DNA from: Squalus acanthias
Taxonomy: Eukaryota
Direction: 5' to 3'
Length of the DNA stretch: 64,000 bases
Assembly: GCA_030390025.1 (NCBI GenBank)
Contig: CM059432.1
Span: 45,572,001 to 45,636,000, forward strand
Part shown: positions 27,604 through 49,506 of the stretch, in pieces
Layout: the number at the start of each line of letters is the position of its first letter
How positions within the stretch are numbered: position 1 is the first letter of the stretch
The notes under the pieces: model-generated
Database searches by the model: none
The model's input: the letters and a program-made list of their open reading frames with translations, nothing else
Told to the model about the DNA's origin: nothing
Translations under genes and position numbers: made by a program

Positions 27604-29612
27604 TGTAAAGTTTCTCAATTATCGCGATTCAAAATAACAAGATAGAAACAGATTCGTTTGATCAGTTTATTTAAACGAAATGCTGTCATGATTAAAAAGG
27701 ACACAGAAGCCTGTAAAATGGCCACCGCGCATCATGGCAGAAGCTTCCAGAATTACAGTGGGCAGACAAGATGGCGTTCGAATAAACATTTCAATATAAG
27801 ACGGGATCATACTCGATAAGCACTGATAAAGACAGGATGCAACCTGTTTGCATTTGTGACAATAGCAAAAGATATGAGTGCTGGAATCGTTTTCCATGCA
27901 CAAGTAAGGACCATTGTACTGGGCAATCGAAGGCCCATCCAGACACATCAATACACAAATACCCCCACGGCTCTACAATGAGAGAGCCATTCTCGGGTGA
28001 TTAAACAAGTATTCGGGGGCCCCCGAAACCATCAGGGAGACGATTCATACTATCCTGGCTGGGTCAACAATGGGGAAAACATTAACGGGTAGTTGGCCAG
28101 TTTCAGGTGCTACCGAAACCCGTTAAAGACAAGAATCGCCCCATGCTGGGAGTTTTGTGTGCCAATATTTCACAAAGGACAAACATTAAGATTTGGGCGG
28201 GAGATAAGGGAACACAGCACTATAACTATAGTGAACAAATGTCCATCGGTCTCTTATTCGCTCGAATCGTCTCCTATTCTCTTAGCTTGCTGCTGACTGC
28301 TGAAGCTCTTCTCTAGGGCTGGACTCTGTTGACTCTGGACTTTTAGCCGCACTGGACGGTTATTCGAATGTTGGGTGGAGCTCAATCGGAACGAGCCGCC
28401 TCGACAAAGGCAAGTGACCGGGTGCACCATCCCGAGAGTCGGTAAGAACATAAGAACATAAGAACATAAGAAATAGGAGCAGGAATAGGCCAATCGGCCC
28501 CTCGAGCTTTGCTCCGCCATTCAATAAGATCATGGCTGATCTGATCCTAACCGCCAATCTACTATCTACTATCACAGAACCATCTCCTGCATCTAACAGA
28601 ATTGCACACACGAAATAGGAGCAGAATCAGCCTACACGGTCCCTGGGCCCACTCCACTACCCACACGGCCATGACCGATCCGAACCTAGACTCATGTCCA
28701 AATTCCTGCCCGCTCCCCGTAACCCTTAATGCCCTTTACTTCTAGGAAACTGTCTATTTCTGTTTTAAATTTATTTAATGATGTAAACGGTGTCTGGACC
28801 CGAAGGCTCAACAAGACAAGACGAAATGACAAGAAAAGAAGAAGAATCCATGTGCCGCCGTGGTCAGTAAACCCCGACCGCGCCCGAAAATATAAGACCC
28901 ACTTCTTGAACTCTACAGGTTATTGCACTAACTCTTTGAATTCTACCGACAACTGGTGTCGGTACAGGAAGACTTTTCTTTGAGTTCTACAGCCGGGCCC
29001 GAGTTCTGTCGAGTTCTTCATGACAACGGGGAGCCCGGCCTGCTTGCCGCAGCAGCGAAGATAAACAAGTGGGGTACAGAGACCCATCCAAACACGTGAC
29101 AGTCAGGCGCTGCAGCGAAACGAGCCGAGTGCCTCACTTTAAAATTCTCCGAAGTATCACGAGTGGTGAGCATGTTCCCCGATCCTACAAATCTAGATGT
29201 AGTGTAGGTATTGATAGGGGAGGGTGGTTTTATTAAGGATAAAGTATAATGTGTTCCCCTTTTTACGATGTGCCGTGCGTTCTTCATTACCATAGACCAA
29301 GCTTTATGAATGTATGTATACTTGTACTCTCGTTAATTTGCACCTATGACATGTACTTCATGATTTTGGATGCTATGCAATAAAGATTTCCATTTCGTAC
29401 TATTCAACCGGGTCTATCTGAGTTTTCTCTGCATTACTGCTCTCGCACCTAAGTCCAGTGTTAGAACCGTAAGGGCGAGTGGGTCGAACCACTCACAGGT
29501 GCTTATTGCAACAAGGCTGGCCGGAGACCAGAGCAAGCAATAGTATTAGGCAACGAAGGCCTAACCTCGCACCAGCACCGTCTGCGATACAAGCACGCCG
29601 AAACCCCTTACA
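27604..29612 (+). repeat. 5' LTR (with a 341-bp CR1 tail insertion)
   Basis: TGTAAAG...CCCCTTACA; AATAAA at 29379-29384; direct repeat of 40349-42031. Confidence 0.97.
28446..28786 (-). mobile_element. CR1 3' UTR/tail fragment inserted in the 5' LTR
   Basis: (AAGAACAT)n tail; absent from the 3' LTR; GTAA duplicated at the junctions. Confidence 0.9.
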
Positions 29613-29616
29613 GAAA

Positions 29617-31441
29617 ATGGCGACCGCGGCAGGACACTGGCAGCGAGAGAGTAATGTTTTAGACCCTGGTGTGAATAGGCGAAATGTGATGGATGAGAGG
29701 GTAGCCGACTATGTGTTTGGGAAGGTTAACTTAACCAAAAGGTGGATAAGTGACCTACTGATGGATAAGCGTCCGCTAGACGCAGCCATCAAATGGACAG
29801 GCAGTAAAGAGCATAAGAAGTCGGTGGAGAAAGCGGTCTGGCTGATGTGCTACAAGAAGCAAGTCCAACTTTCGGACCAGGTCATTGTAGCACAGGCAGC
29901 TCAGATCAGGGATTTGGAAGTTGAGATGGAGGAAAAGATCACGGGAGGACAGAAACTCATTGCATCCTTGAATGCGTTACATCAGGAACGCCAGATAGTA
30001 GCCAACCACCATGAGGCTAAAATTGATTACCTAGAGTGTCAGGTCACGGAAGCGAAATTAAACGAGGGTAGGATTAGGGAACGGTGTGCCCGCCTAGCTA
30101 ACCAGATAAAAGCCCAGGAAGAAAGCTTGAAGGGAGTTAGGGCGGCATATAAGATGGCCCTCGAGGATAGGCATGAGGGAGCCGACCACAGTGTTTGCCA
30201 GAAGGAGATAGGGAACCTAAGAGAGGCCCTGAATAAGGCAAACGGCTTGCTGTTCCTCATCAGCCCGTCAGAAAACCAGCCACAGGTGGGTAGGGAATTC
30301 CCAAAATCCCTACCAGACAAAGCAGAGGAGGTATTTGCCACTGTGCCCTCCGCGCCACCCAGCTATTCGGCAACCTGGGTAAGGGAGGAAGTGGTGGAAA
30401 TAGAAAAGGAGGTTCCCGAGGTAGGACAATCCCCAGAGGTAGAGTCGAAACCGGGACCGATGTGTCCGCTCCGAGGTCACAAGAGAGGCCCGAATGCAGC
30501 CAATGGGGATGACGGGGATGTCCTGAACCAGCTTATATTGCCTCACAGCTCACACCAGCTGAGAGCAATGATTAGCCATGTACGGAAGCTGTCCGAGTCA
30601 GACGACCCTTCCGTACACTTTAGGGAGGTAGAACAGACCGCAGCAATTAATGGCTGCGACGATGTGGAAAAGACCAAAATGTTGCTGTTCTCGTTAGATA
30701 GCTCGATCCTTCAGTGTCTCTCAGACGAGAGCAAGAAGGGAAATAAAACCTATGAGGAGTTACGGGACGAGGTCCTAGAAGTGTTAGGGGCGGATGACGA
30801 AGGTCCGTTCGTCAGATTGAGTCAAATCATACAGATGGAGGGAGAACTCCCGAAGGTTTTCGCCGACAGGCTGTGGCCAGTATACCAGCGTAGCTGCCCA
30901 GGTGCGCCAGCGTGCACCTATCTGAACGGTGCCAGGTTTAACTCATTGGCTCAGGTGTTCAGTAGCCAACAGTTTGCCAGCCGTCAGGGAGCAGGCCAAA
31001 GCGTGGTTTGATCCCACTAACCCCGCCACAACAGAGGAGTCTGTCCTAAATCGACTCACCATAGGGTATCGTAACACTAGGAGCACGGGAGCGCGTCCCC
31101 TTAAGGGAAAGGTGCATGAGGCACGGCCCGCAGCCCCGGCTCAAAAGGAGTGGCATCAGGAGGGAAACCGCGCCCCACAAGCCAGTGGTGCTTGTTACGG
31201 GTGCGGGAAGACAGGTCACTGGCGTAAGAACTGTAGGAACCCCTGGAAGGACCCCAGGGATAAAAATCCCGCAGCCCGAACCCAAGCGCCTGTCTCTGAG
31301 AGAGGAGCTGGTGTGCCTATCCATCCCGATGCGATAGAATCAATGTTGGGAGCTATGCGGTCCCTTATGATTTCGCAAGGAAGGGTGGCAGTCGCTACCG
31401 GCCTCACAGATGCCACAAAATCGTCCACCAGTACCCAATGA
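29617..31441 (+). pseudogene. gag: Gag: N-terminal coiled coil, PSAPPSY late domain, capsid-like region, CCHC knuckle; one frameshift at ~30928
   Basis: ORFs 29479-31011 and 30929-31441; CYGCGKTGHWRKNC; candidate starts at ATG 29617 or 29689. Confidence 0.9.
29618..29635 (+). promoter_or_regulatory. Primer binding site, tRNA-Arg(UCG)
   Basis: TGGCGACCGCGGCAGGAC is complementary to the vertebrate tRNA-Arg(UCG) 3' end ...GTCCTGCCGCGGTCG-CCA (tRNA sequence recalled from memory). Confidence 0.85.
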
Positions 31442-34400
31442 CTAGAGCCCGCGTAGCCCGTTTACCTGTGTCCGCTCAGCTATGATGCGTGGAAAAGACC
31501 CCTGGTTGAGATGGAGGTAGAGAAGCAGAAGGGTAGTTATTTGTTGGACACGGGAGCTTCATGCACCGTGATTCATACGGATAGCCCCTTTGACTCACTG
31601 CTGTCTACCAAGGTCCCATACACATTAGCGGGGTTCACGGGAAAAGAGCAGGCTGGCGCGTTCTCCATTCCGCTCTCCATTCATTTAGGAGCACTCCACA
31701 CCACATGGAAGTGCATACTGATGAAATGGCAAGAGTGGGGTGGCAGAGGTATCCTCGGATCGGATCTCCTATCGGAACACGTGATCCTCGTGGACCTTAG
31801 GAATCACTGTCTCTGGGGAGCCAAGGGTGGGAAAGGCAAGGTAGTTGTAATCCCAGGGAAGGAAGGTAAAGGGGCCCTGTGTACCATGAAGCCATCCGGA
31901 GGTTACGACCTCGGGCTTATGGTCGCGGATGTCCCAACGGACATGCAAGCGTACGTGTCAGATAATATGCACGCGTTTGCAACCCACAAGCACGATTGTG
32001 GGAGGGTTACCGGGTTTGAGGTCAGCATAGACGGGGACCCCATGACCCGGCCCCAAAAGCAGTATAACTTCCCCAAAGAAGCAGAACCCGACATGGAGAC
32101 AGCAATGTCCTCATTGGTGCAGCAGGGCGTGTTGAGGCCGATAGCCACACACGTGAACTCCCCATTATGGCCGGTGAGGAAGCCGGATAATTCGTGGAGG
32201 GCCACGGTGGACTACAGAGTCCTTAACAGTAACATCCCCGCCTGCGCGCCCACAGTAGCAGCAGTTGCTGACCAATAGGGAGTATCCCAGCGTCCGCGAC
32301 CACGTTCACGGTGCTGGATATCTCGAACGGTTTTTGGTCCATCCCGCTGCGGCGAGAGGACCAGTACAAGTTTGCCTTTACTTTTAAAGGACAACAGTAC
32401 ACATGGAACTGTTTGCCACAGGGTTTCCACAACAGCCCCAGTATTTTCCATCAGTGTATGGCAGGAAGTTTAAAGGAGTTTAGTCAGCCCAATCAGATAG
32501 TGCAATACGTGGATGATTTGCTCCTGTTCACGGACTCAAGGGAAGAGCATGGACCACTGCTAGCCGAGTTATTGGAGCTGCTAGCGAGAAAGGGTTTTAA
32601 AGTGAACCCTAAGAAAGCACGTATCGGTCAGCAGGAAGTAAAATTCCTGGGTCTGACCATTCGCGCTGGGGAAAGAGCCATAGATAAGGCTAGGAGGGAG
32701 TCGGTGCAGGAGTTACCGATTCCCAACACCATAACGGGTGTGAGGTCCTTTCTGGGACTGACCGGTTACTGTAGAGACTTCATCGAGGACTATGCGGCCA
32801 CAGCAGCTCCGCTGCTCCGACTCCTCCATAAGGGAGTGGAGTGGTCTTGGGACGAGGGTTGCCAGGCAGCATTCGAGAAGTTAAAAAGGGATTTGCAGAC
32901 CGCGCCAGCTTTAGGGGCCATAGATGGGGGGAAGGAGTTTTTCCTGGAGGTAGCTGCCAGCGGAGACAGCTTGAGCGCCGTGCTGCTCCAAGAGCGTCAC
33001 GGCAAGCTGAGGCCGGTTGTCTATTCGACCAGGGTGTTAACGGATGTGGAGAGGAGTTTTTCCAACTGCGAAAGGCATCTTTTAGCCACGCATTGGGCTG
33101 TGAAAAGATCAGCGATCTTCACAGGGCTCTCTCCCATCACTCTCCTCACCCATCACACACCAACTAAGATGCTTCTAGATGGGAGGATTAAGGATGGGAC
33201 CGTAAGCAGCGCTCTCATTGCGCGCTGGACCCTTCTCCTTTCCCAGATGGATCTTAGAGTTAAAGGTCTTTGCGAGCCCAGGCTTGCGGCCAACTTGGTA
33301 TACCCCGGAACAGCCCACCGGTGTTCGGTAGAAGGGGTGTGGGAGGTCAACATAGGTTTGCGGGCCGGGATACATCCCACAGGTCGCGAGATTTATGTTG
33401 ATGGTTCCAGCACAGTGTCCGCTGGCGAACGACTCACAGGGTGTGGAGTTTATGACCCTGCGGCAAACCTTGCCCTGGCGATTAAACTCCCCAGCACCAT
33501 GAGCGCGCAGCAGGCTGAGCTGTCTGCGGTGGTGTACGTAGTGACCCACCCAGAGATCTTCCCAACCACATACACGATTTGTTCGGACAGTATGTTTACG
33601 TGCAATTCGTGTACGGAATACCTGGCCATTTGGTCCCGCCGTGGATACACCTCCGCGGACGGGCGACCTTTAACGGTGAAGCCCTTGCTGGAAAAGATCC
33701 TAGCAGCAGTAGGGGAGGAAGGGGAGATTTTCATCCATAAGGTGAAAGCTCCCTCCTCCACAGAGCCCCGCGGGGAGGGCAACCAGCAGGCGGATGCGCT
33801 AGCCAGGGAGGGTGCCCGTAACGGCATTTTCTGGGACCCCTATGGACCCGGACCCGTGGCAGCAATCCAAGGCAGGGAAGGGAATCCCGGGAACACCAGG
33901 GTAGCACTGCCCCTAGACCTTAAGGCCGTCCAGAACCAGGATCCCGCGCTAAAAGCAGTTCTCAGAACGATTACTGAGGGCAAGCAGGTAGAGGGCCTGT
34001 ACAGTACGGCAACCCTCTCCGTTAAAGAAGGCATGCTGTTCCGCGAGGAACAGTGGGTTGTGCCGCAGCAGCACAGGAGGGAATTCCTACAGTTGGCTCA
34101 TGAGGGGCCGGGGGCAGGACACCCCGGGCCGGAGGTTACCTGGCAACGGGTAGAGCAGGCGGGATGGTGGCCGGGACTCAGGGAGCAGGTCCGCGAGTTC
34201 TGTGCAAACTGTCTCGTGTGCGCTGCAAACAACCCAGACCCCCAGAAAAGGAAAGTGCACATGGGGCACATCAGGAGGGTGGAGGGACCGTGGCAGTCGA
34301 TACAGATCGATTACATAGGGCCCCTGCCCACCACCCAGGGAGGCTACAAATACTGCCTCGTCTTGGTGGATGTGTTTTCCAAATGTGTAGAAGCCTTCCC

Positions 34401-34621
34401 CTGTAGAACAGCTACGGCGCTGGGTACTGCTAAGATCTTGGTCCAGGAAGTGTTCTCGCGGTGGGGACTCCCCCGTTTCGTGGAGTCAGACCAAGGGAGT
34501 CATTTCACCGGCCAGGTGATGCAGAACACCCTCATGCTTTTGGGCATTGAAGGGAAGTGGCACGTAGCGCACAATCCCCAGTCATCCAGGATTGTTGAAC
34601 GCATGAACCGGACCCTCAAGC
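31442..34621 (+). pseudogene. pol: Pol: protease, RT, degenerate RNase H (tether), RNase H, integrase core; stop at 31454, frameshift at ~32272
   Basis: LLDTGAS; PQKQY, LDISNGFWS, LPQGFHNSP, YVDD; YVDGSS/AQQAEL/CSDS/GNQQAD; H..H..CANCLVC, IQIDYIGP, ESDQGSHF, VERMNRTLK. Confidence 0.96.
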
Positions 34622-36265
34622 TGTAAGGGATTCTGACCCTGCGTGTCTCGCAGCCTGTGAGATTCACGCGGCTCTGTGCAGCCTGTATGTCAGTGCGGGT
34701 TTAAGCCTTGTTGCCTGTTCTGGTCTCCAGCCAGTCTGGGAGCACTAGACACACCTGTGAGTGGTTCGAATCACTCGCCCTTACGGTTCTAGACACTGGA
34801 CTTAGATGCGAGAGCAGTAATGGAGATGAAACTCATGTAGACTCGGTTGAATGGTACGAAATGGAAAATCTTTATTGCATGATATTTAAGATTATGAAAT
34901 ACATGTCATAAGCACAGATTAATGACAGTACAATCTTACAAGCAGTTATATAGCTGATCCTAGGGAAACGAGGAACGAACGACACACCGTAAATAGGGGC
35001 ACACATTACAAGTATCCTTAATACTTAAACCCTCCCCTATCAATATCTGTCCTAACTAGATTCGTAGGATTTCGAGACTCATGCTCACCACTCGTGATAA
35101 CTCGGAGAAATTCCAAATAGCTGATCGGATGTTTTTCACCGCAGCACCCACGTGTCGGTCAGGAGATCTCCTGGTCCCACTTGTTTACTTGCTTCTGCTC
35201 CGGCTAGCAGGCTGGACCGTCTGCTGTGATGAAGATCTGTGTTGGTTGGTTTAACAGGTACTTTTCCGAGCAGGTTTCACAGCTCAGTCAATATCATCGA
35301 TGATGAACCGTTCTTGCAAGTTCAAAGAAGTCTTCCTGGCAAGGAAAACTTGGCTATTCGACCTACAGGCGCGGTCGGGATTTACTGACCGTGGCGATGA
35401 GTATGGTCTTCCTCTCTTCTCATCTCATCTCATCTCATCTCATCTCGGGCCTTTGGTTCCGCTGCCAGTTACCAACATAGGTCTTCGTTACGCGACACGA
35501 GGTAGATCCGAACGGATCAGAAAGTTCAACAGTCTTTTTCAAAAAGGCACCAGGAAAACAGGAACCAGACTACGAGTCAAAACGCAGGAGCAGCCATGAG
35601 GTTACGAGTCGATCGGATAAGAGAAATAAGAGAGAGATGGACGGTTGGAGCTTGTAATTATAGTACAAAATCTTCCGTTTCCCGCCCAACCTTAATGTCC
35701 TTTCTTTTGTTTGGGTCTGGCGCTCAAATGTCTTGTATGGGTGATCTCCGTTCTTAATGGGTTTCGGGGCTACTCGTAAATGTCTGAGTACCTGTTAATA
35801 TTTCTCCCATTGTTAAATCGGTCGGTGTTCTCCCTGGAGGGGTTTTGGGGCTTCCAAGTGTTTTGTATAACTACCTGCTAATGGCTCTCTCATCGTAGAG
35901 TCGTTGGGATTTTACATATTAATGTCTTTTGGATGGGCCCCTGATTACTCGGTACAATAGCTTTCATTCGTACCTGGGAGACCGATTTCAGTATTTATGT
36001 GTATACTGTAAACCCATAATGTCTCGTGTATTATCTTCACTGTGCTGAATCTTAATCGATCTTGCACAAATGTTTATTGGAACGCCATCTTGTCTGCCTG
36101 TCGAAAAGTCTGGAATGTTCTGTCACGAGGTGCGGCGGCCATTTTACAGGCTGCTTGTGTCTACTTTGAGAAACCTGGCAGCATTCTGCTGAAATAAAAG
36201 CTGTTTGAACGAAACTCTGTGTTTTCTCCTTATTAATAAAATCGCGATATATTGCGAATTCTACA
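34622..36265 (-). mobile_element. Solo LTR (1644 bp, antisense) inserted in the integrase; 1450-3098-type subfamily
   Basis: Reverse complement reads TGTAGAATTCGC...CCCTTACA; AAGC/AAGG 4-bp flanks; removing it restores RTLK-EKLRKE. Confidence 0.95.
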
Positions 36266-36670
36266 AAGGAGAAGCTGAGGAAAGAGACTATGAACTCGCC
36301 CCAAAAATGGGCGGAGGTTCTGCCTCTAGTCCTCATGGGAATCCGGGCCAGCCAGTCGAAGAGTACGGGGTATTCCCCGTACGAGGTGATGACTGGGAGG
36401 ATCATGCGAACCCCCACCCATGTACTAGCCCCGGTGCTCACTGAGGATCAGCTCCAAGAGGTGAAACGGGACAAGTTTGTCCAGACCCTCTTGGAGCGCC
36501 TGAAGCAGGTTTACGAGCAGGCGGCTGGGAACATGGGAAGACAGCATCAGGGCAATCGCCTGTTGCTGGAACCCTGTAAGAAGCAGGAGTGGGAAGTCGG
36601 AGATCAGGTCATGGTTAGGAACTATGCCAGAGTAGGGAGTTTGGAACCACTGTATATGGGACCCTACAGT
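36266..36670 (+). pseudogene. pol: Integrase C-terminal part up to the GPY motif
   Basis: KWAEVLPLVLMGIRAS..STGYSPYEVMTGR..WEVGDQVMVR..LEPLYMGPYS. Confidence 0.9.
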
Positions 36671-37338
36671 CAGATGAGGAAGAGCTCGAGGAGCTCGACC
36701 AAGGTAGTGACCCGATCGGAGAGGTGCTGGGGTCAGAGGACGAAAGTTTCGTCCTCGACTCAAGCTCAGGGGAGATAGGGGCTGCGAGTGGAGATCCACA
36801 CAGGGTGGAATCGGAAACTGCAGATCCCGAGCCCAGGGGGGCGGAGCTAGGGGAGACGGAGCCAGTGGCTGTGGTAGGACCATAGGCCGTGACGGTGGAA
36901 GTCTCGGTACCCGGTCCGTCGGCCCTGGAAGTCTTGCCCTTGGGGGAGGTAGGGATTGCGAGTGGAGGACCACATACTGGGCCAAGTAGGGTGGAGCCAG
37001 AAACTGCAAATCCCGAGTTCAGGGGGGCGGAGCCAGGGGAGACGGAGCCAGCGGCTGTGGTAGGACCACAGGCCGTGACGGTGGAAGTCTTGGTTCCTGG
37101 TCCGTCGGCCCTGGAAATCTTGCCCAAAGTAGCCCTCCGTAGGTCAAGTCGGACACCCCAGCCCAGGAAGTCGTGGTCAAGTCCCCCGTACACCCCAAGG
37201 CGTAAGTTCAAGGTCAAGGCAGCCAGGGAGATCCCAGTCCCAGCGCAGCGGCGACAGGCTGCGGCAGATCAAAGGAAGGGGTCAGTGCCCTCCCACCACT
37301 GGGAAAAGCTCGTGGCAGCCTTCGCAGAATTTAAGTAG
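36670..37338 (+). pseudogene. Acidic/Pro-rich reading frame with an internal ~60-aa duplication and a basic tail (integrase extension or accessory ORF)
   Basis: SDEEELEELDQG...; repeat units 36769-36942 and 36943-37128; LRRSSRTPQPRK; one internal TAG; ends EFK*. Confidence 0.6.
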
Positions 37339-37599
37339 GCTGCCCTGGGAATGGGCAGCGCTGTACAGATAAGTTTATAAGTTTAAGTTTAAGTTTTGTA
37401 AGTTTGGTAAGTTTGCAGTTTAATTTTAACAGAAAATGGTAAAATGATGGGAGTTAGTGATAGGAATAGTTAAAGTCTATCCAGCATACATGTCGTTATA
37501 CGTGAGACGAGGTCAAGGGACCCGCTCACCCTTCACAAAAGCCAGAGACTCTTGGGAGGCTGGCTACACCATTTTATCTGATCACAGGAACCAGGAAAG

Positions 37600-39950
37600 A
37601 TGGAAAGGATTCTGATAGTGCTCGCAACGATCGGATATGGATTGGCCTATCGGGGCCTCACCAAGGATGTCGTTGTGTTTGGCTGCTCCGGGGACACGGG
37701 CCCCATCGCGACGGATGGGACCGGGGAGCGAAAGGCTGAGGAGACCGCCACTTATTTCCACAAGGGAAGGTGGCCGGGATGGCTGGGAACGAATTCAACG
37801 GAATACTCAAGCGCATCCGGATTTGCCTACAAAGAGACTTCTTTACTGTGCCCCAGAGTGAGGATCATTGCACCCAGAATCAGCGTCACCGTCGGCAAAA
37901 GGATTTGTTTGACATGCAATGGGAAGGTCCCATTGAGCCGATGGTGGTGGTTACGGAAATTAAGCAAGACTATGAGAAATTCCTCGGTTGAGTGGGAGCG
38001 ATTGGGTAACAACACCCATCGGACAATTACGGGGACTAACGGACAATTGAAAGTCTGTTGGGACAAATGGTGGGAACCGGATGAGGGAATATATGTTTGT
38101 ATGTGGGGATCGAAGTACGTTTGCCCCAAGGGTATATCCATATTTTTCGTACACCAGTGGCAGGATAGCGGAAAAGGGATGAGGTGGGATGTCAGCACCA
38201 AGGGGTGCGGAGCTGCATTCTCCCCGATCCCGGTAAACGCCACTGAACTCATCACGCGCCCACGCAAGGCTCTGCCCACGATTCCGGTGGTTTTGGCTCA
38301 GAAGGAAGGGTGCCCTAAAACCACTAAGGGGCCCGGGAATGGTTTGGTACTGGTCCCAACAGACCAGATACTATTTCAAGGGGTACATTACGCGGTGGCT
38401 TCGGTGATTCTAAATCTCACCGAGGTGCGTTTACCAGAGTGGTGCCCCAAAGAGACGGAACAATTGTACCAGGTCCTGTTGACAAACATGTTCAGACAAT
38501 TCTACGAGTTTGATTTTGCGGAGATTGACAAAACAAGCTTGTACACCACACCACACGAAGTTTTGGGTCAGGTGGGGAGACAAAGAAGGGGTATTGTGAA
38601 CGATATGTTCACTGCCTTTAATACAGGAACATCTGTGGTCAACGCTCTAGACAACGTGGAGCTGCAGACCCAGATCAATGGTTTAAAAACACAATTAAAA
38701 AGCATCCTCACAAGCGAAAACAAGGTAGTAGGGTCTGAGTTACATGAGGACCAGGCCATGACACTACACTTAAAGGAGATTATAGCAGAGCTGGAGAAGC
38801 ATGCGAGAACGGTAAATGCCCTGATCAGGGAAGATCGGAATGCATCCGATCAAGCTGCGCAGAACGAGGTGTGCGTACTATACGGGGCGTGGTTACTGGG
38901 CGAGGGCTGCAGTAATTTGGAGGATTTAAAATAAGGTTTGGTCCCGTCCTGGATAAGTAACAAACACCTGCAGGCGCTCCACCCTTTTCAGAACGCATTA
39001 AGCCCGTGCCAGCTCAGGCTAGCCTCAGAGGCATACCCAGTCCCCGTGGACTGTGGACGGTCAAATCATACCATCATGGGTATAGTACTACGTATGCCGG
39101 TGTTGGGCGACACGGCAAAGCCCACCCCGGTGTACCGGGTGGAGAACATTGGTGTCATTCAGGGGGAGCCCACATTCGCTACGCAGCAGTCCCACCTTAC
39201 GTCATCCGCTGGGAGCAAACGATGACAGGTACCGACCTATCGGGTTGTCGTGGCCGGGGAGCACACATCATACTGTGTCCCCAGCACTTGAATGCCTTTT
39301 TACCACCACAATGCGGGTTCAGAACGGCTGGCGCCAAGGGAATGAATTGCACCATGGAAGCAATGACACAAGATCATGTGCCTCCGCAGGTGGCATACAT
39401 AGGGGGTGGAACATATTGCGTTACCACTGCAGCGCAACACTACCAGCATGGAAACCACAGCCGGTGTCCGGTGAGTGACAGCAGTTTCTGTTTTAAACCC
39501 AGAGTTGAAGTTCAAGTGGCACAACAGCGAATTGTCCCGATCCCTGAACCATCCACTGTTCACCTTACAGTAAAAGAGAATTTCACCGACTTGCAGCGAT
39601 TCGTCGCGCATTTTGGATACATCATTCCCCCTCTCCCTGAACACCTCACCAAGCTTTTGAAAGCCGTCGCGGTGTCACAGAAACATTTTTACACCCTGGA
39701 ACAAAAGACTGTCGAGATAGGGACAGAAATTTTGGACATAGTAATCCCACCGTGGTGGGATCTGTTCACTAATATTGAAGTTCCTTCATGGATCAGGATA
39801 GCCTCCCACATTTTGGTAGTGTGCCAAGTTATAATTGTAGTGTACCTATTGGTCGTGCACTGCAGAAGAGGCAAACGCCTCACAAAGCAGGAGAACACAG
39901 GGGAGTGGAGAGAACGTTACGTGCGCGTGAATGAAGAAAGTGCCGCATAA
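37600..39950 (+). pseudogene. env: Envelope glycoprotein (~780 aa): signal peptide, Ig-like domain, F-like class I fusogen, TM and tail; stop at 38932, frameshift at ~39165
   Basis: MERILIVLATIGYGLA signal; RQRR|GIVND cleavage; heptad region; Cys-rich region; ILVVCQVIIVVYLLVV TM; acceptor-like TTTTATCTGATCACAG ending at 37587. Confidence 0.9.
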
Positions 39951-40336
39951 ACGGCCAGGATGACGCCGCTCCATTTTTACCATGTGTGTTTTCGTAATTG
40001 ATTGTTAGTAATGAATATGTGTAACTAAGTTTGGAACTTTGTATTTTTAAAATGGTTGTTTGATTATTTTTCTCTTGTATAATAAAAACATGCATATACA
40101 GGTGGTGCGAGAGGCATCGGCCTGTTGCACCTGGAAGGCGTATACGCGATGTAAGTTTAAAGGCAATACTGCCTACAATTTGTCCAAGTTTAAACAATGT
40201 AATTTTCCCTGGGAAATGAGGACGGCATGGAGGCCATAGATAGTTCAAGTTAAGGGAGTGTTTGGATGTGGAGAATCGGGATAATTTTTGCTCACCACCA
40301 TTTTTAATTGATACGATAAGCGGAGTTATTCGCATC

Positions 40337-40348
40337 AACAGGAGGGAC
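40337..40348 (+). promoter_or_regulatory. Short purine tract (PPT) before the 3' LTR
   Basis: AACAGGAGGGAC immediately precedes TGTAAAG. Confidence 0.7.
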
Positions 40349-42031
40349 TGTAAAGTTTCGCAATTATCGCGATTCAAAATAACAAGATAGAAACAGATTC
40401 GTTTGATCAGTTTATTTAAACAAAATGCTGTCATGATTAAAAAGGACACAGAAGCCTGTAAAATGGCCACCGCGCATCGTGGCAGAAGCTTCCAGAATTA
40501 CAGTGGGCAGACAAGATGGCGTTCGAATAAACATTTCAATATAAGACGGGATCATACTCGATAAGCACTGATAAAGACAGGATGCAACCTGTTTGCATTT
40601 GTGACAATAGCAAAAGATATGAGTGCTGGAATCGTTTTCCATGCACAAGTAAGGTCCATTGTACTGGGCAATCGAAGGCCCATCCAGACACATCAATACA
40701 CAAATACCCCCACGGCTCTACAATGAGAGAGACATCGACGGGTGATTAAACAAGTATTCGGGGGCCCCCAAAACCAGTCAGGGAGATGATTCATACAATC
40801 CTGGCTGGGTCAGCAATGGGGAAAACATTAACGGGTAGTTGGCCAGTTTCAGGTGCTACCGAAACCCGTTAAAGACAAGAATCGCCCCATGCTGGGAGTT
40901 TTGAGCGCCAATATTTCACAAAGGACAAACATTAAGATTTAGGCGGGAGATAAGGGAACACAGCACTATAACTATAGTGAACAAATGTCCATCGGTCTCT
41001 TATTCGCTCGAATCGTCTCCTATTCTCTTAGCTTGCTGCTGACTGCTGAAGCTCTTCTCTAGGGCTGGACTCTGTTGACTCTGGACTTTTAGCCGCACTG
41101 GATGGTTATTCGAATGTTGGGTGGAGCTCAATCGGAACGAGCCGCCTCGACAAAGGCAAGTGACCGGGTGCACCATCCCGAGAGTCGGTAAACGGTGTCT
41201 GGACCCGAAGGCCCAACAAGACAAGACGAAATGACAAGAAAAGAAGAAGAATCCATGTGCCGCCGCGGTCAGTAAACCCCGACCGCGCCCGAAAATATAA
41301 GACCCACTTCTTGAACTCTACAGGTTATTGCACGAACCGGTCAAAGACTCTTCTTTGAATTCTACCGACAACTGGTGTCGGTACAGGAAGACTTTTCTTT
41401 GAGTTCTACAGCCGGGCCCGAGTTCTGTCGAGTTCTTCATGACAACGGGGAGCCCAGCCTGCTTGCCGCAGCAGCGAAGATAAACAAGTGGGGTACAGAG
41501 ACCCCTCCAAACACGTGACAGTCAGGCGCTGCAGCGAAACGAGCCGAGTGCCTCACTTTAAAATTCTCCGAAGTATCACGAGTGGTGAGCATGTTCCCCG
41601 ATCCTACAAATGTAGATGTAGTGTAGGTATTGATAGGGGAGGGTGGTTTTATTAAGGATAAAGTATAATGTGTTCCCGTTTTTACGATGTGCCGTGCGTT
41701 CTTCATTACCATAGACCAAGCTTTATGAATGTATGTATACTTGTACTCTCGTTAATTTGCGCCTATGACATGTACTTCATGATTTTGGACGCTATGCAAT
41801 AAAGATTTCCATTTCGTACTATTCAACCGGGTCTATCTGAGTTTTCTCTGCATTACTGCTCTCGCACCTAAGTCCAGTGTTAGAACCGTAAGGGCGAGTG
41901 GGTCGAACCACTCACAGGTGCTTATTGCAACAAGGCTGGCCGGAGACCAGAGCAAGCAATAGTATTAGGCAACGAAGGCCTAACCTCGCACCAACACCGT
42001 CTGCGATACAAGCACACCGAAACCCCTTACA
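40349..42031 (+). repeat. 3' LTR (1683 bp)
   Basis: TG...CA ends; AATAAA at 41798-41803; TATA-like AATATAA at ~41293. Confidence 0.97.
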
Positions 42032-48389: not shown

Positions 48390-49506
48390 TCACAGCCACA
48401 TGGCTAATTGTGCTTGTAGTTCACCAACCTTATTCACCACACTTCGTGCATTTACATACATGCATTCAAAACCCATTTTTGAATTTTTTGTAGTCTTTCT
48501 TAGTCTGCTCCTATATAATATGGTACTTCTACCTCCTCTAGTACTATCATCTCTAGTACTATCCAACACAATCACTCTTTTATGCACCTTATTCCTCTTT
48601 TCTACTCCTATATGCTGGTGCCCATCCCCCTGCCAAGCTAGTTTAAATCCTCCCCAACAGCACTAACAAACCTCCCTGTGAGAATATTGGTCCCGGCTCT
48701 GTTGAGGTGTAACCCGTCCAGCTTGTACAGGTCCCACCTTCCCCAGAAACGGTCCCAATGCCTCAGGAATCTAAAGCCCTCCCCCCTGCACCATCTCTCC
48801 AGCCACGCATTCATCTGTTCTATCCTCCTATTCCTGTACTCACTAGCACGTGGCAACGGTAGTAATCCGGAGATTACTACCTTTGAGGTCCTGCTTTTTA
48901 ATCTCTTTCCTAGCTCCCTAAACTCTGCCTGCAGGACCTCATCCCTCTTTCTGCCTATGTCATTGGTACCGTTATGGACAATGACCTCTGGCTGTTCACC
49001 CTCCACCCTCAGAGTGTCCTGCAGCTGCTCAGTGACATCCCTGACCCTGGCACCAGGGAGGCAACATACCATCCTGGAGTCACGTCTACGGCCGCAGAAA
49101 CGCCTGTTTGCTCCTCTAACTATTGAATCCCCTACCACTATTGCTCTTCCACTCTTTTTCCTCCCCCCCTGTGCAGCTGAGCCACCCGTGGTGCTGTGGA
49201 CTTGACTTTGGCTGCTCTCCCCAGAGGAACCATTGCCCTCACCAGTACACAGAACAGAATACTGGTTGGAGAGCACAATGTACTCCGGGGACTCCTGCAC
49301 ACCTGCCTGGTCCTCCTCTTCTGTCTGGCGGTTGCCCATTCTCTCTCTGCCTGCACACTCTTAAGCTGCGGGGTGACCACATCCTGAAATGTGCTATCCA
49401 CGTAACGCTCAGCCTTGCGGATGCACCGCAGTGAGTCCAGCCACCACTCAAGCTCCGAAACCCGGAGCTCGAGTTGCTGTAGCTGGCGACACTTCCTGCA
49501 CATGTA
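48390..49506 (-). mobile_element. CR1 5' part: ORF1 (half Zn finger, leucine zipper, SGNH esterase; frameshift at ~49320) and start of ORF2 APE
   Basis: CRKCRQLQQLELRVSELE; VVGDSIVRG, CLPGARV, HNGTNDIG, DGLHLN; ECMYVNARSVVNKVGEL. Confidence 0.92.

Follow-up and report, generated by a model that had tools for sequence, protein, structure and literature searches.

A predicted immunoglobulin-like domain at the N-terminus of a likely F-type envelope protein in a probably SnRV-like endogenous retrovirus of Squalus acanthias

The element and its env gene

In a 64,000-nucleotide stretch of the Squalus acanthias genome (contig CM059432.1, positions 45,572,001 to 45,636,000; hereafter the window), a long terminal repeat (LTR) element occupies window positions 27604-42031 and hosts the env gene studied here, whose predicted product carries an immunoglobulin (Ig)-like segment between its hydrophobic N-terminus and its fusogen (Table 1). 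The element is flanked by a 4-bp target duplication, ACAT, and lies within what by eye is a long interspersed nuclear element (LINE) reverse-transcriptase fragment. In self-BLAST, the two halves of its 5' LTR match the 3' LTR at 98.0% and 97.2% identity. Its only long genes are gag, pol and env, and therefore no separate attachment gene is apparent, accessory genes not having been specifically sought. The window copy is damaged: pol carries a frameshift in the reverse transcriptase (RT) and a solo LTR interrupts its integrase, and the env frame is lost first to a stop (38932-38934) and then to a frameshift between ~39160 and ~39220.

Table 1. Features of the element in the window (aa, amino acids of Env)
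Feature	Position	Strand	Content or basis
5' LTR, TG...CA	27604..29612	+	split by a ~340-bp insertion at 28446-28782; self-BLAST against the 3' LTR
Primer-binding site, matching the complement of the tRNA-Arg(TCG) 3' end	29618..29635	+	genome matches and ARAGORN
gag	29617..31441	+	frameshift near 31000; long likely coiled coil; one CCHC knuckle; weak Pfam coiled-coil-type matches only
pol	31511..36778	+	single short protease, RT (LPQGF, QYVDDLL), tether, RNase H, integrase
Solo LTR from a related family, inverted, within integrase	34622..36265	-	75-77% identity to the element's LTR, in three pieces
Env predicted signal peptide, aa 1-16	37600..37647	+	hydropathy peak aa 4-22; cleavage site by eye
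Env N-terminal extension, aa 17-237	37648..38310	+	8 Cys; predicted all-beta; not present in Loki Env
Ig-like core, aa 84-186	37849..38157	+	Cys106, Trp116/117, D/E-x-G-x-Y-x-Cys167, extra Cys103/Cys153
Likely F2-like subunit, aa 238-330	38311..38589	+	C-x5-GPGNGLVL through furin-type RQRR (38578-38589)
Likely F1-like subunit	38590..39950	+	putative fusion peptide, heptad repeats, Cys-rich region, transmembrane helix (~39798-39854), tail
Polypurine tract (40340-40348) and 3' LTR (40349-42031)	40340..42031	+	self-BLAST

The Ig-like domain and the fusion core

The N-terminal extension of Env contains the motifs ISVTVG (aa 94-99, 37879-37896), LTC (aa 104-106), RWWW (aa 114-117), GQLKV (aa 148-152) and DEGIYVC (aa 161-167, 38080-38100), together with an extra Cys103 and Cys153, all of them where an earlier note made from the sequence alone had placed them. 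These include the V/I-set hallmarks of the Ig superfamily (IgSF), i.e., the B-strand Cys106, the C-strand Trp116/117 and the F-strand D/E-x-G-x-Y-x-C at aa 161-167, and alignments put all three in register with VL and CRTAM. As that note had also proposed, the segment sits between a hydrophobic N-terminus (Kyte-Doolittle peak at aa 4-22) and the fusogen, which starts at about Cys238. The extension as a whole bears 8 conserved Cys and 4 N-glycan sequons, with 8 Trp in the core.

Searches of several kinds were compared. Pfam Ig_3 matched aa 81-187 at E 0.011 and the corresponding domains of relatives at E 0.00074 and 0.0045 (copies of a second family, B, described below), 0.0027 (P0004) and 0.0085 (P0015); on the cut domains it scored 16.7-20.4 bits against a curated cut-off of 30, and P0002 and P0011 gave no Pfam Ig match. 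The top rank in a PDB profile search was the IgV domain of CRTAM (E 0.032), and the nearest viral folds were RL11-family and poxvirus haemagglutinin Ig proteins (E ~0.015). In the ESM Atlas, scores reached 0.90-0.92 and the ten best family-bearing matches all belonged to one family or clan, an agreement that, by the tool's own account, a third of shuffled proteins also obtain. A motif regular expression matched 0/200,000 shuffles, a weak result since the expression was composed after the sequence had been inspected. An AlphaFold2 model of the N-terminal segment is all-beta, with a predicted local distance difference test score of 58.6; because its structural matches start at residue ~12-16 or 68-75 and end at ~204 (Env aa ~28 or 88 to 220), the Ig-like fold may reach beyond aa 86-185 at its boundaries. 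Collectively, the Ig-like signal appears to exceed chance, though no single test is strong, and the N-terminal domain of Env is probably V-type immunoglobulin-like. The V/I-set domain that the earlier note had recognized is thus partly upheld by its motifs and by the weak Ig_3 and CRTAM matches, while it misses the Pfam cut-off, and its model is all-beta at a low score.

The domain is preserved across a young and abundant element family. In the 3.7-Gb genome searched, the window's Env family (A) is high-copy, with 5,739 candidates; the 150 scored candidates are 94-100% identical, and a 783-aa Env is open in 19/20 stretches extracted. The second family, B, is 66% identical to family A and encodes a 782-aa Env. 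By hand count among the 150 best-scoring genomic matches, a sample biased to top scores, aa 66-222 are stop-free in 143 and a 789-codon frame is open around ~38. Residue conservation was counted in 44 family-A and 30 family-B copies, all of them top-scoring matches, after six duplicate loci had been removed: C106 is present in 43/44 A and 30/30 B copies, W116 in 44/44 and 30/30, C167 in 44/44 and 29/30, and the extra C103 and C153 in 44/44 each for A, and in 29/30 and 30/30, respectively, for B. When 19 open A copies are compared with 3 open B copies, identity over the Ig core is 62%, pN is 0.23 and pS, which is saturated, is 0.84; the A-versus-B dN/dS is ~0.10 for the extension and ~0.08 for the fusion core, rough values because dS is near saturation. 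Among the 19 A copies, dN/dS is 0.24 for the Ig domain and 0.16 for the F core. Since the domain is conserved and dN/dS is low, purifying selection has acted on it during the element's replication, at a strength close to that on the fusion core. The checks on other copies and on dN/dS that the earlier note had called for therefore came out in favor of an in-frame, selected domain.

A further proposal of that note, that RPRK at aa 220-223 is a second processing site, was rejected: the motif has no P1 Arg, only 9/30 family-B copies keep R220 and 10/30 keep P221, and homologs read HTRK, QVRK, HIKK or RPRI at this position. The conserved basic site of Env is RQRR at aa 327-330.

Around RQRR, Env shows the class Ib layout: a hydrophobic N-terminus, an N-subunit of ~90 aa, heptad repeats and a long C-subunit, with ten ectodomain Cys after the cut and a transmembrane segment at aa 734-752. 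By eye, the F2-like start motif is colinear with the N-termini of Loki Envs and with shark and frog relatives. Loki Envs match PF00523 at 2.2e-7 (PMC7947760, sections available), and Pfam gave no detectable PF00523 match for the window Env; a PF00523 search across the genome likewise returned no match, but neither did its controls. Fusion_gly was found at E 0.036 in L084, a relative from the same genome, in 2/19 members at E values of at least 0.076, and in 0/30 in the listed families of alignment A3; one relative matched Baculo_F at E 0.0011. The adjacent Cys pair of the CX6CC motif, a mark of gamma/alpha-type Env, is missing from the ~450-aa C-subunit. On this layout and these motifs, the fusogen is likely of the paramyxovirus-F type.

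Affinity of the element and the variable slot of its relatives

The RT points to SnRV. In a 47-residue core set by eye against the alignment supplied with PMC7947760, the window matches SnRV at 36/47 positions, the best of the references compared; the others reach 27 (WDSV), 25 (FFV), 25 (ZFERV-2), 24 (Loki-Sri), 24 (Loki-Aro) and 23 (HERV-L). The window RT carries the signatures LPQGFHNSP and QYVDDLLL. The complement of the primer site with a T-loop prefix has 435 genome matches, ARAGORN called tRNA-Arg(tcg) at 2/2 loci scanned, and the tRNA-Arg primer site is present in family B too. A tRNA-Arg primer and a long Gag coiled coil are SnRV features that Hart is reported to have described in 1996. 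Judged by these features, the element is likely SnRV-like, and there is little doubt that it is not Loki, the label given in the earlier note: its signature is LPQGF/QYVDDLL, not PFGY/IYVDD, and Loki membership was rejected on this signature and the 24/47 score. A foamy-like identity was also rejected, given the CCHC knuckle, the Arg primer site and the RT score of 25/47 to FFV. A dual RNase H (tether plus RH; RT_RNaseH and RNase_H) is present and is not diagnostic of Loki, because it is shared with all retroviruses. SnRV Env was absent among the named Env homologs (20/54 matches looked up by name), and the homolog searches returned neither SnRV nor Loki sequence. Pfam recognized RVP, RVT_1, RT_RNaseH, RNase_H, Integrase_H2C2 and rve in pol. 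The terminal stop of gag is a TGA in frame with pol (31439-31456), which suggests readthrough; five codons on, the frame meets another stop.

Relatives of the Env were sought with a profile among 1.84 billion representatives, which gave 54 matches, 17 of them examined in addition to an earlier ten; those with a name among the 20 looked up come from sharks, four frog genera and coelacanth. Named homologs of 53-77% identity occur in Rhinoraja and Pristiophorus, and a Pol homolog of 84% identity in Heptranchias. Ten distant relatives cover the region before the fusogen start. By eye, this slot has an Ig-like pattern in five (P0018 from Chiloscyllium, P0022 from Pelodytes, P0048 from Mantella, P0057 from Bombina, and P0035), a Cys-rich module of ~120 aa in three (P0017 from Mustelus, P0029 from Pristiophorus and, in part, P0034) and no module in two (P0043 and the coelacanth P0058). 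Pfam supports P0035 (V-set, E 0.0017) and, with a faint match at E 0.11, P0018, which UniRef labels 'Ig-like domain-containing protein'; it found no Ig family in the cut modules of P0022, P0048, P0057, P0017, L084 and L091, so the likeness of the P0022, P0048, P0057, L084 and L091 modules to Ig is one seen by eye. The Cys-rich module had no Pfam or ESM Atlas match. P0018-like families occur in the S. acanthias genome as well, with RT (LQYVDD, 42-53% identity) in 2/4 upstream stretches. The P0048 cluster of Mantella aurantiaca has 16 members, 677 aa long in 12/15 listed, with a basic RNKR site before the Ig-like module; it is a young frog family with such a module. A final homolog search added 2 fragments only.

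Since what fills the slot differs among related Envs, and some leave it empty, the slot behaves as an exchangeable cassette. Aligned with eight other module groups, the window module scored 10-19, which shuffled controls also reach (maxima 14-25), with one exception, the Cys-rich group (19.1 against a shuffled maximum of 14.8), where the match spans 13 columns only, at a probability of 3%. Among four other shark module groups, 4/6 pairs align with a probability of 75-97%. A single origin for all modules was thus not shown, the window module aligning meaningfully to none, and on alignments divergence and independent capture look indistinguishable.

Several observations touch the rest of the element and the window. 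The LTRs are unusually long, ~1.68 kb (27604-29612 and 40349-42031), and the ~340-bp insertion in the 5' LTR (28446-28782) has short tandem repeats at its start and the look of a short interspersed nuclear element or a LINE end. At 29617 the gag frame has its first ATG, which shares bases with the primer site and is unlikely to be the real start. Between pol and env, an open frame at 36780-37340 holds a Glu/Pro-rich direct repeat (36802-36939 versus 36988-37125, 91%) and may be an extended integrase tail or an accessory open reading frame. On contig C26, at ~39-42 Mb (L097), tRNA-Arg(TCG) and tRNA-Ser(GCT) form tandem arrays with a ~1.62-kb unit. The database gene models P0005, P0007 and P0037 join parts of Env with Niban, zinc-finger or FBXO15 sequences and may be annotation artefacts or chimeric transcripts. 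A 30-bp tandem array of ~107 units runs from window position 49355 to ~52800.

A candidate attachment module and its known counterparts

We moderately favor a reading in which the Ig-like module is the built-in attachment domain of a likely F-type fusion protein. Once the signal peptide is removed and furin has cut at RQRR, the module would remain on the N-terminal, F2-like subunit; it would bind a cell-surface partner, keeping the particle at the cell, and the F1-like subunit would then fuse the membranes. Position and selection are observed here, fold and fusogen type are predicted, and binding is argued by analogy. Several points weigh against it. F-type Envs that have no module exist (22 Loki entries, P0043 and P0058), so entry in general does not require one; receptor-binding domains often evolve faster than this domain does; and the F-type assignment itself is weakly supported, its basis being layout, motifs and weak Pfam matches, with PDB searches using profiles A3 and A4 having matched coiled coils only and no F protein.

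The module might instead be an immune-modulating or decoy mimic of a host IgSF ligand of the nectin/CRTAM, CD2/SLAM or CEACAM type, with entry carried out by the F core alone. The CRTAM profile match, the likeness of the P0035 module to a disulfide-less V-set (besides its Pfam match, it has weak SLAMF5/CEACAM matches at E 0.3-0.7), the RL11-family and poxvirus haemagglutinin neighbors and the Envs that have no module all fit such mimicry, but the module forms one covalent chain with the rest of Env, in the position that other viral fusogens use for receptor modules, and no host protein is near enough in sequence to be mimicked, which leaves a decoy unlikely. A low probability is likewise given to a structural cap that stabilizes or shields the prefusion trimer and has no ligand of its own: the strong purifying selection, close to that on the F core, and the conserved Cys, core Trp and glycan sequons are what a cap would show, but unalignable modules, or none, on a shared core are better explained by a plug-in function than by a cap that co-evolved. 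That the segment is a virus-evolved beta-sandwich resembling Ig by convergence is less probable again, as the sequence-only methods all place Ig first and the register of B-Cys, C-Trp and D/E-x-G-x-Y-x-C matches real V domains.

Where the module came from bears on a wider proposal. The earlier note had called it a captured host domain, a claim that went unconfirmed: PDB sequence, profile and structure searches, which did not extend to a genome search for IgSF genes, found no host donor, the best PDB match standing at E 0.03. Host capture of the Ig domain is plausible and, because no donor is recognizable, unproven. A broader scenario, in which the SnRV-like retroviruses of sharks, frogs and coelacanth carry an undescribed class Ib Env family that repeatedly and independently captured host IgSF domains as receptor-binding modules, is put forward tentatively, as a rather doubtful possibility. 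Were this scenario true, a lineage classed in Orthoretrovirinae would contain a class Ib fusogen, and Envs bare of a module, with one of several Ig modules or with a Cys-rich module would make a natural series for the gain of a receptor domain by a fusion protein. Orthoretrovirus Env has been placed in class Ia, with foamy Env alone in class Ib (Fernandez et al. 2024, PMC11468914, sections available), and an F-type Env on an SnRV-like backbone, if true, would blur this split and bear on the origin of retroviral env. With a young, abundant family and graded modules, the origin of a built-in receptor domain is therefore open to comparative and structural study.

The earlier note knew of no retroviral Env with this architecture. 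Taken broadly this does not hold, since N-terminal IgV-like receptor-binding domains (RBDs) are established on the gamma-type Env of MLV, FeLV and EnvP(b)1, and the alpha-like Env-Dbi has been described with an IgV derived from SIRP (Hotzel, bioRxiv 2024.03.17.585361, sections available). For F-type Env it appears to hold: in a literature taken largely from outside subscription papers, including the available parts of PMC10435555 and PMC5210030, no Ig module atop an F-type retroviral Env was found, and 'immunoglobulin' and 'Ig-like' are absent, by keyword count, from the main texts of the Loki paper (PMC7947760), the errantivirus preprint, the anamniote Env preprint, two amphibian endogenous retrovirus (ERV) papers and the Troyka paper. 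Retroviral Envs with Ig-like receptor domains and F scaffolds with receptor modules are thus each known; their combination is one of which we found no description.

Among its closest counterparts, SnRV and the SnRV-like ERVs are nearest to the window element in the RT core (36/47 for SnRV), and the clade also occurs in cartilaginous fish: SnRV-like ERVs, including CmiERV lineage I, are known from elephant shark (PMC4422223, PMC4977317), and SnRV is an unclassified orthoretrovirus (PMC12193657); the sections available of these three papers say nothing of the clade's Env type or domains. Lokiretroviruses share an Env with signal peptide, RxxR site, coiled coil and transmembrane segment (PMC7947760), with colinear motifs by eye (a GPxxGxVL start, GxIPxxI after the first heptad repeat, LxxP...YxVxNxG and the CP/CG Cys pattern), and a Pol with dual RNase H. 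They differ in the long region before RT (PMC7947760) and in an Env whose fusogen directly follows the signal peptide in 22/22 entries with an N-terminus (23 entries), so that the extended architecture is not one already documented for Loki; shark, ray and chimaera genomes are unmarked for Loki in the Table S2 entries examined (PMC7947760).

The RBD-C found in MLV, FeLV and EnvP(b)1 and the module of Env-Dbi resemble the window module in being N-terminal, Ig-like, exchanged between lineages and proposed host captures, but they stand on gamma/alpha-type (class Ia) surface-transmembrane proteins (bioRxiv 2024.03.17.585361), whereas the window Env lacks CX6CC, has a much longer C-terminal subunit and a module with no recognizable donor. 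Among F scaffolds, paramyxovirus F carries no such receptor module, and the foamy virus Gag, unlike the window Gag, has no CCHC knuckle, with an RT scoring 25/47 (FFV). The foamy RBD is a new, non-Ig fold and an internal insertion in Env, and the receptor module of coronavirus spike is N-terminal (PMC11468914). Class Ib foamy Env and coronavirus spike nevertheless offer the likeness on which the attachment reading draws, each bearing its own receptor module on an F scaffold in place of a separate attachment protein (PMC11468914, sections available).
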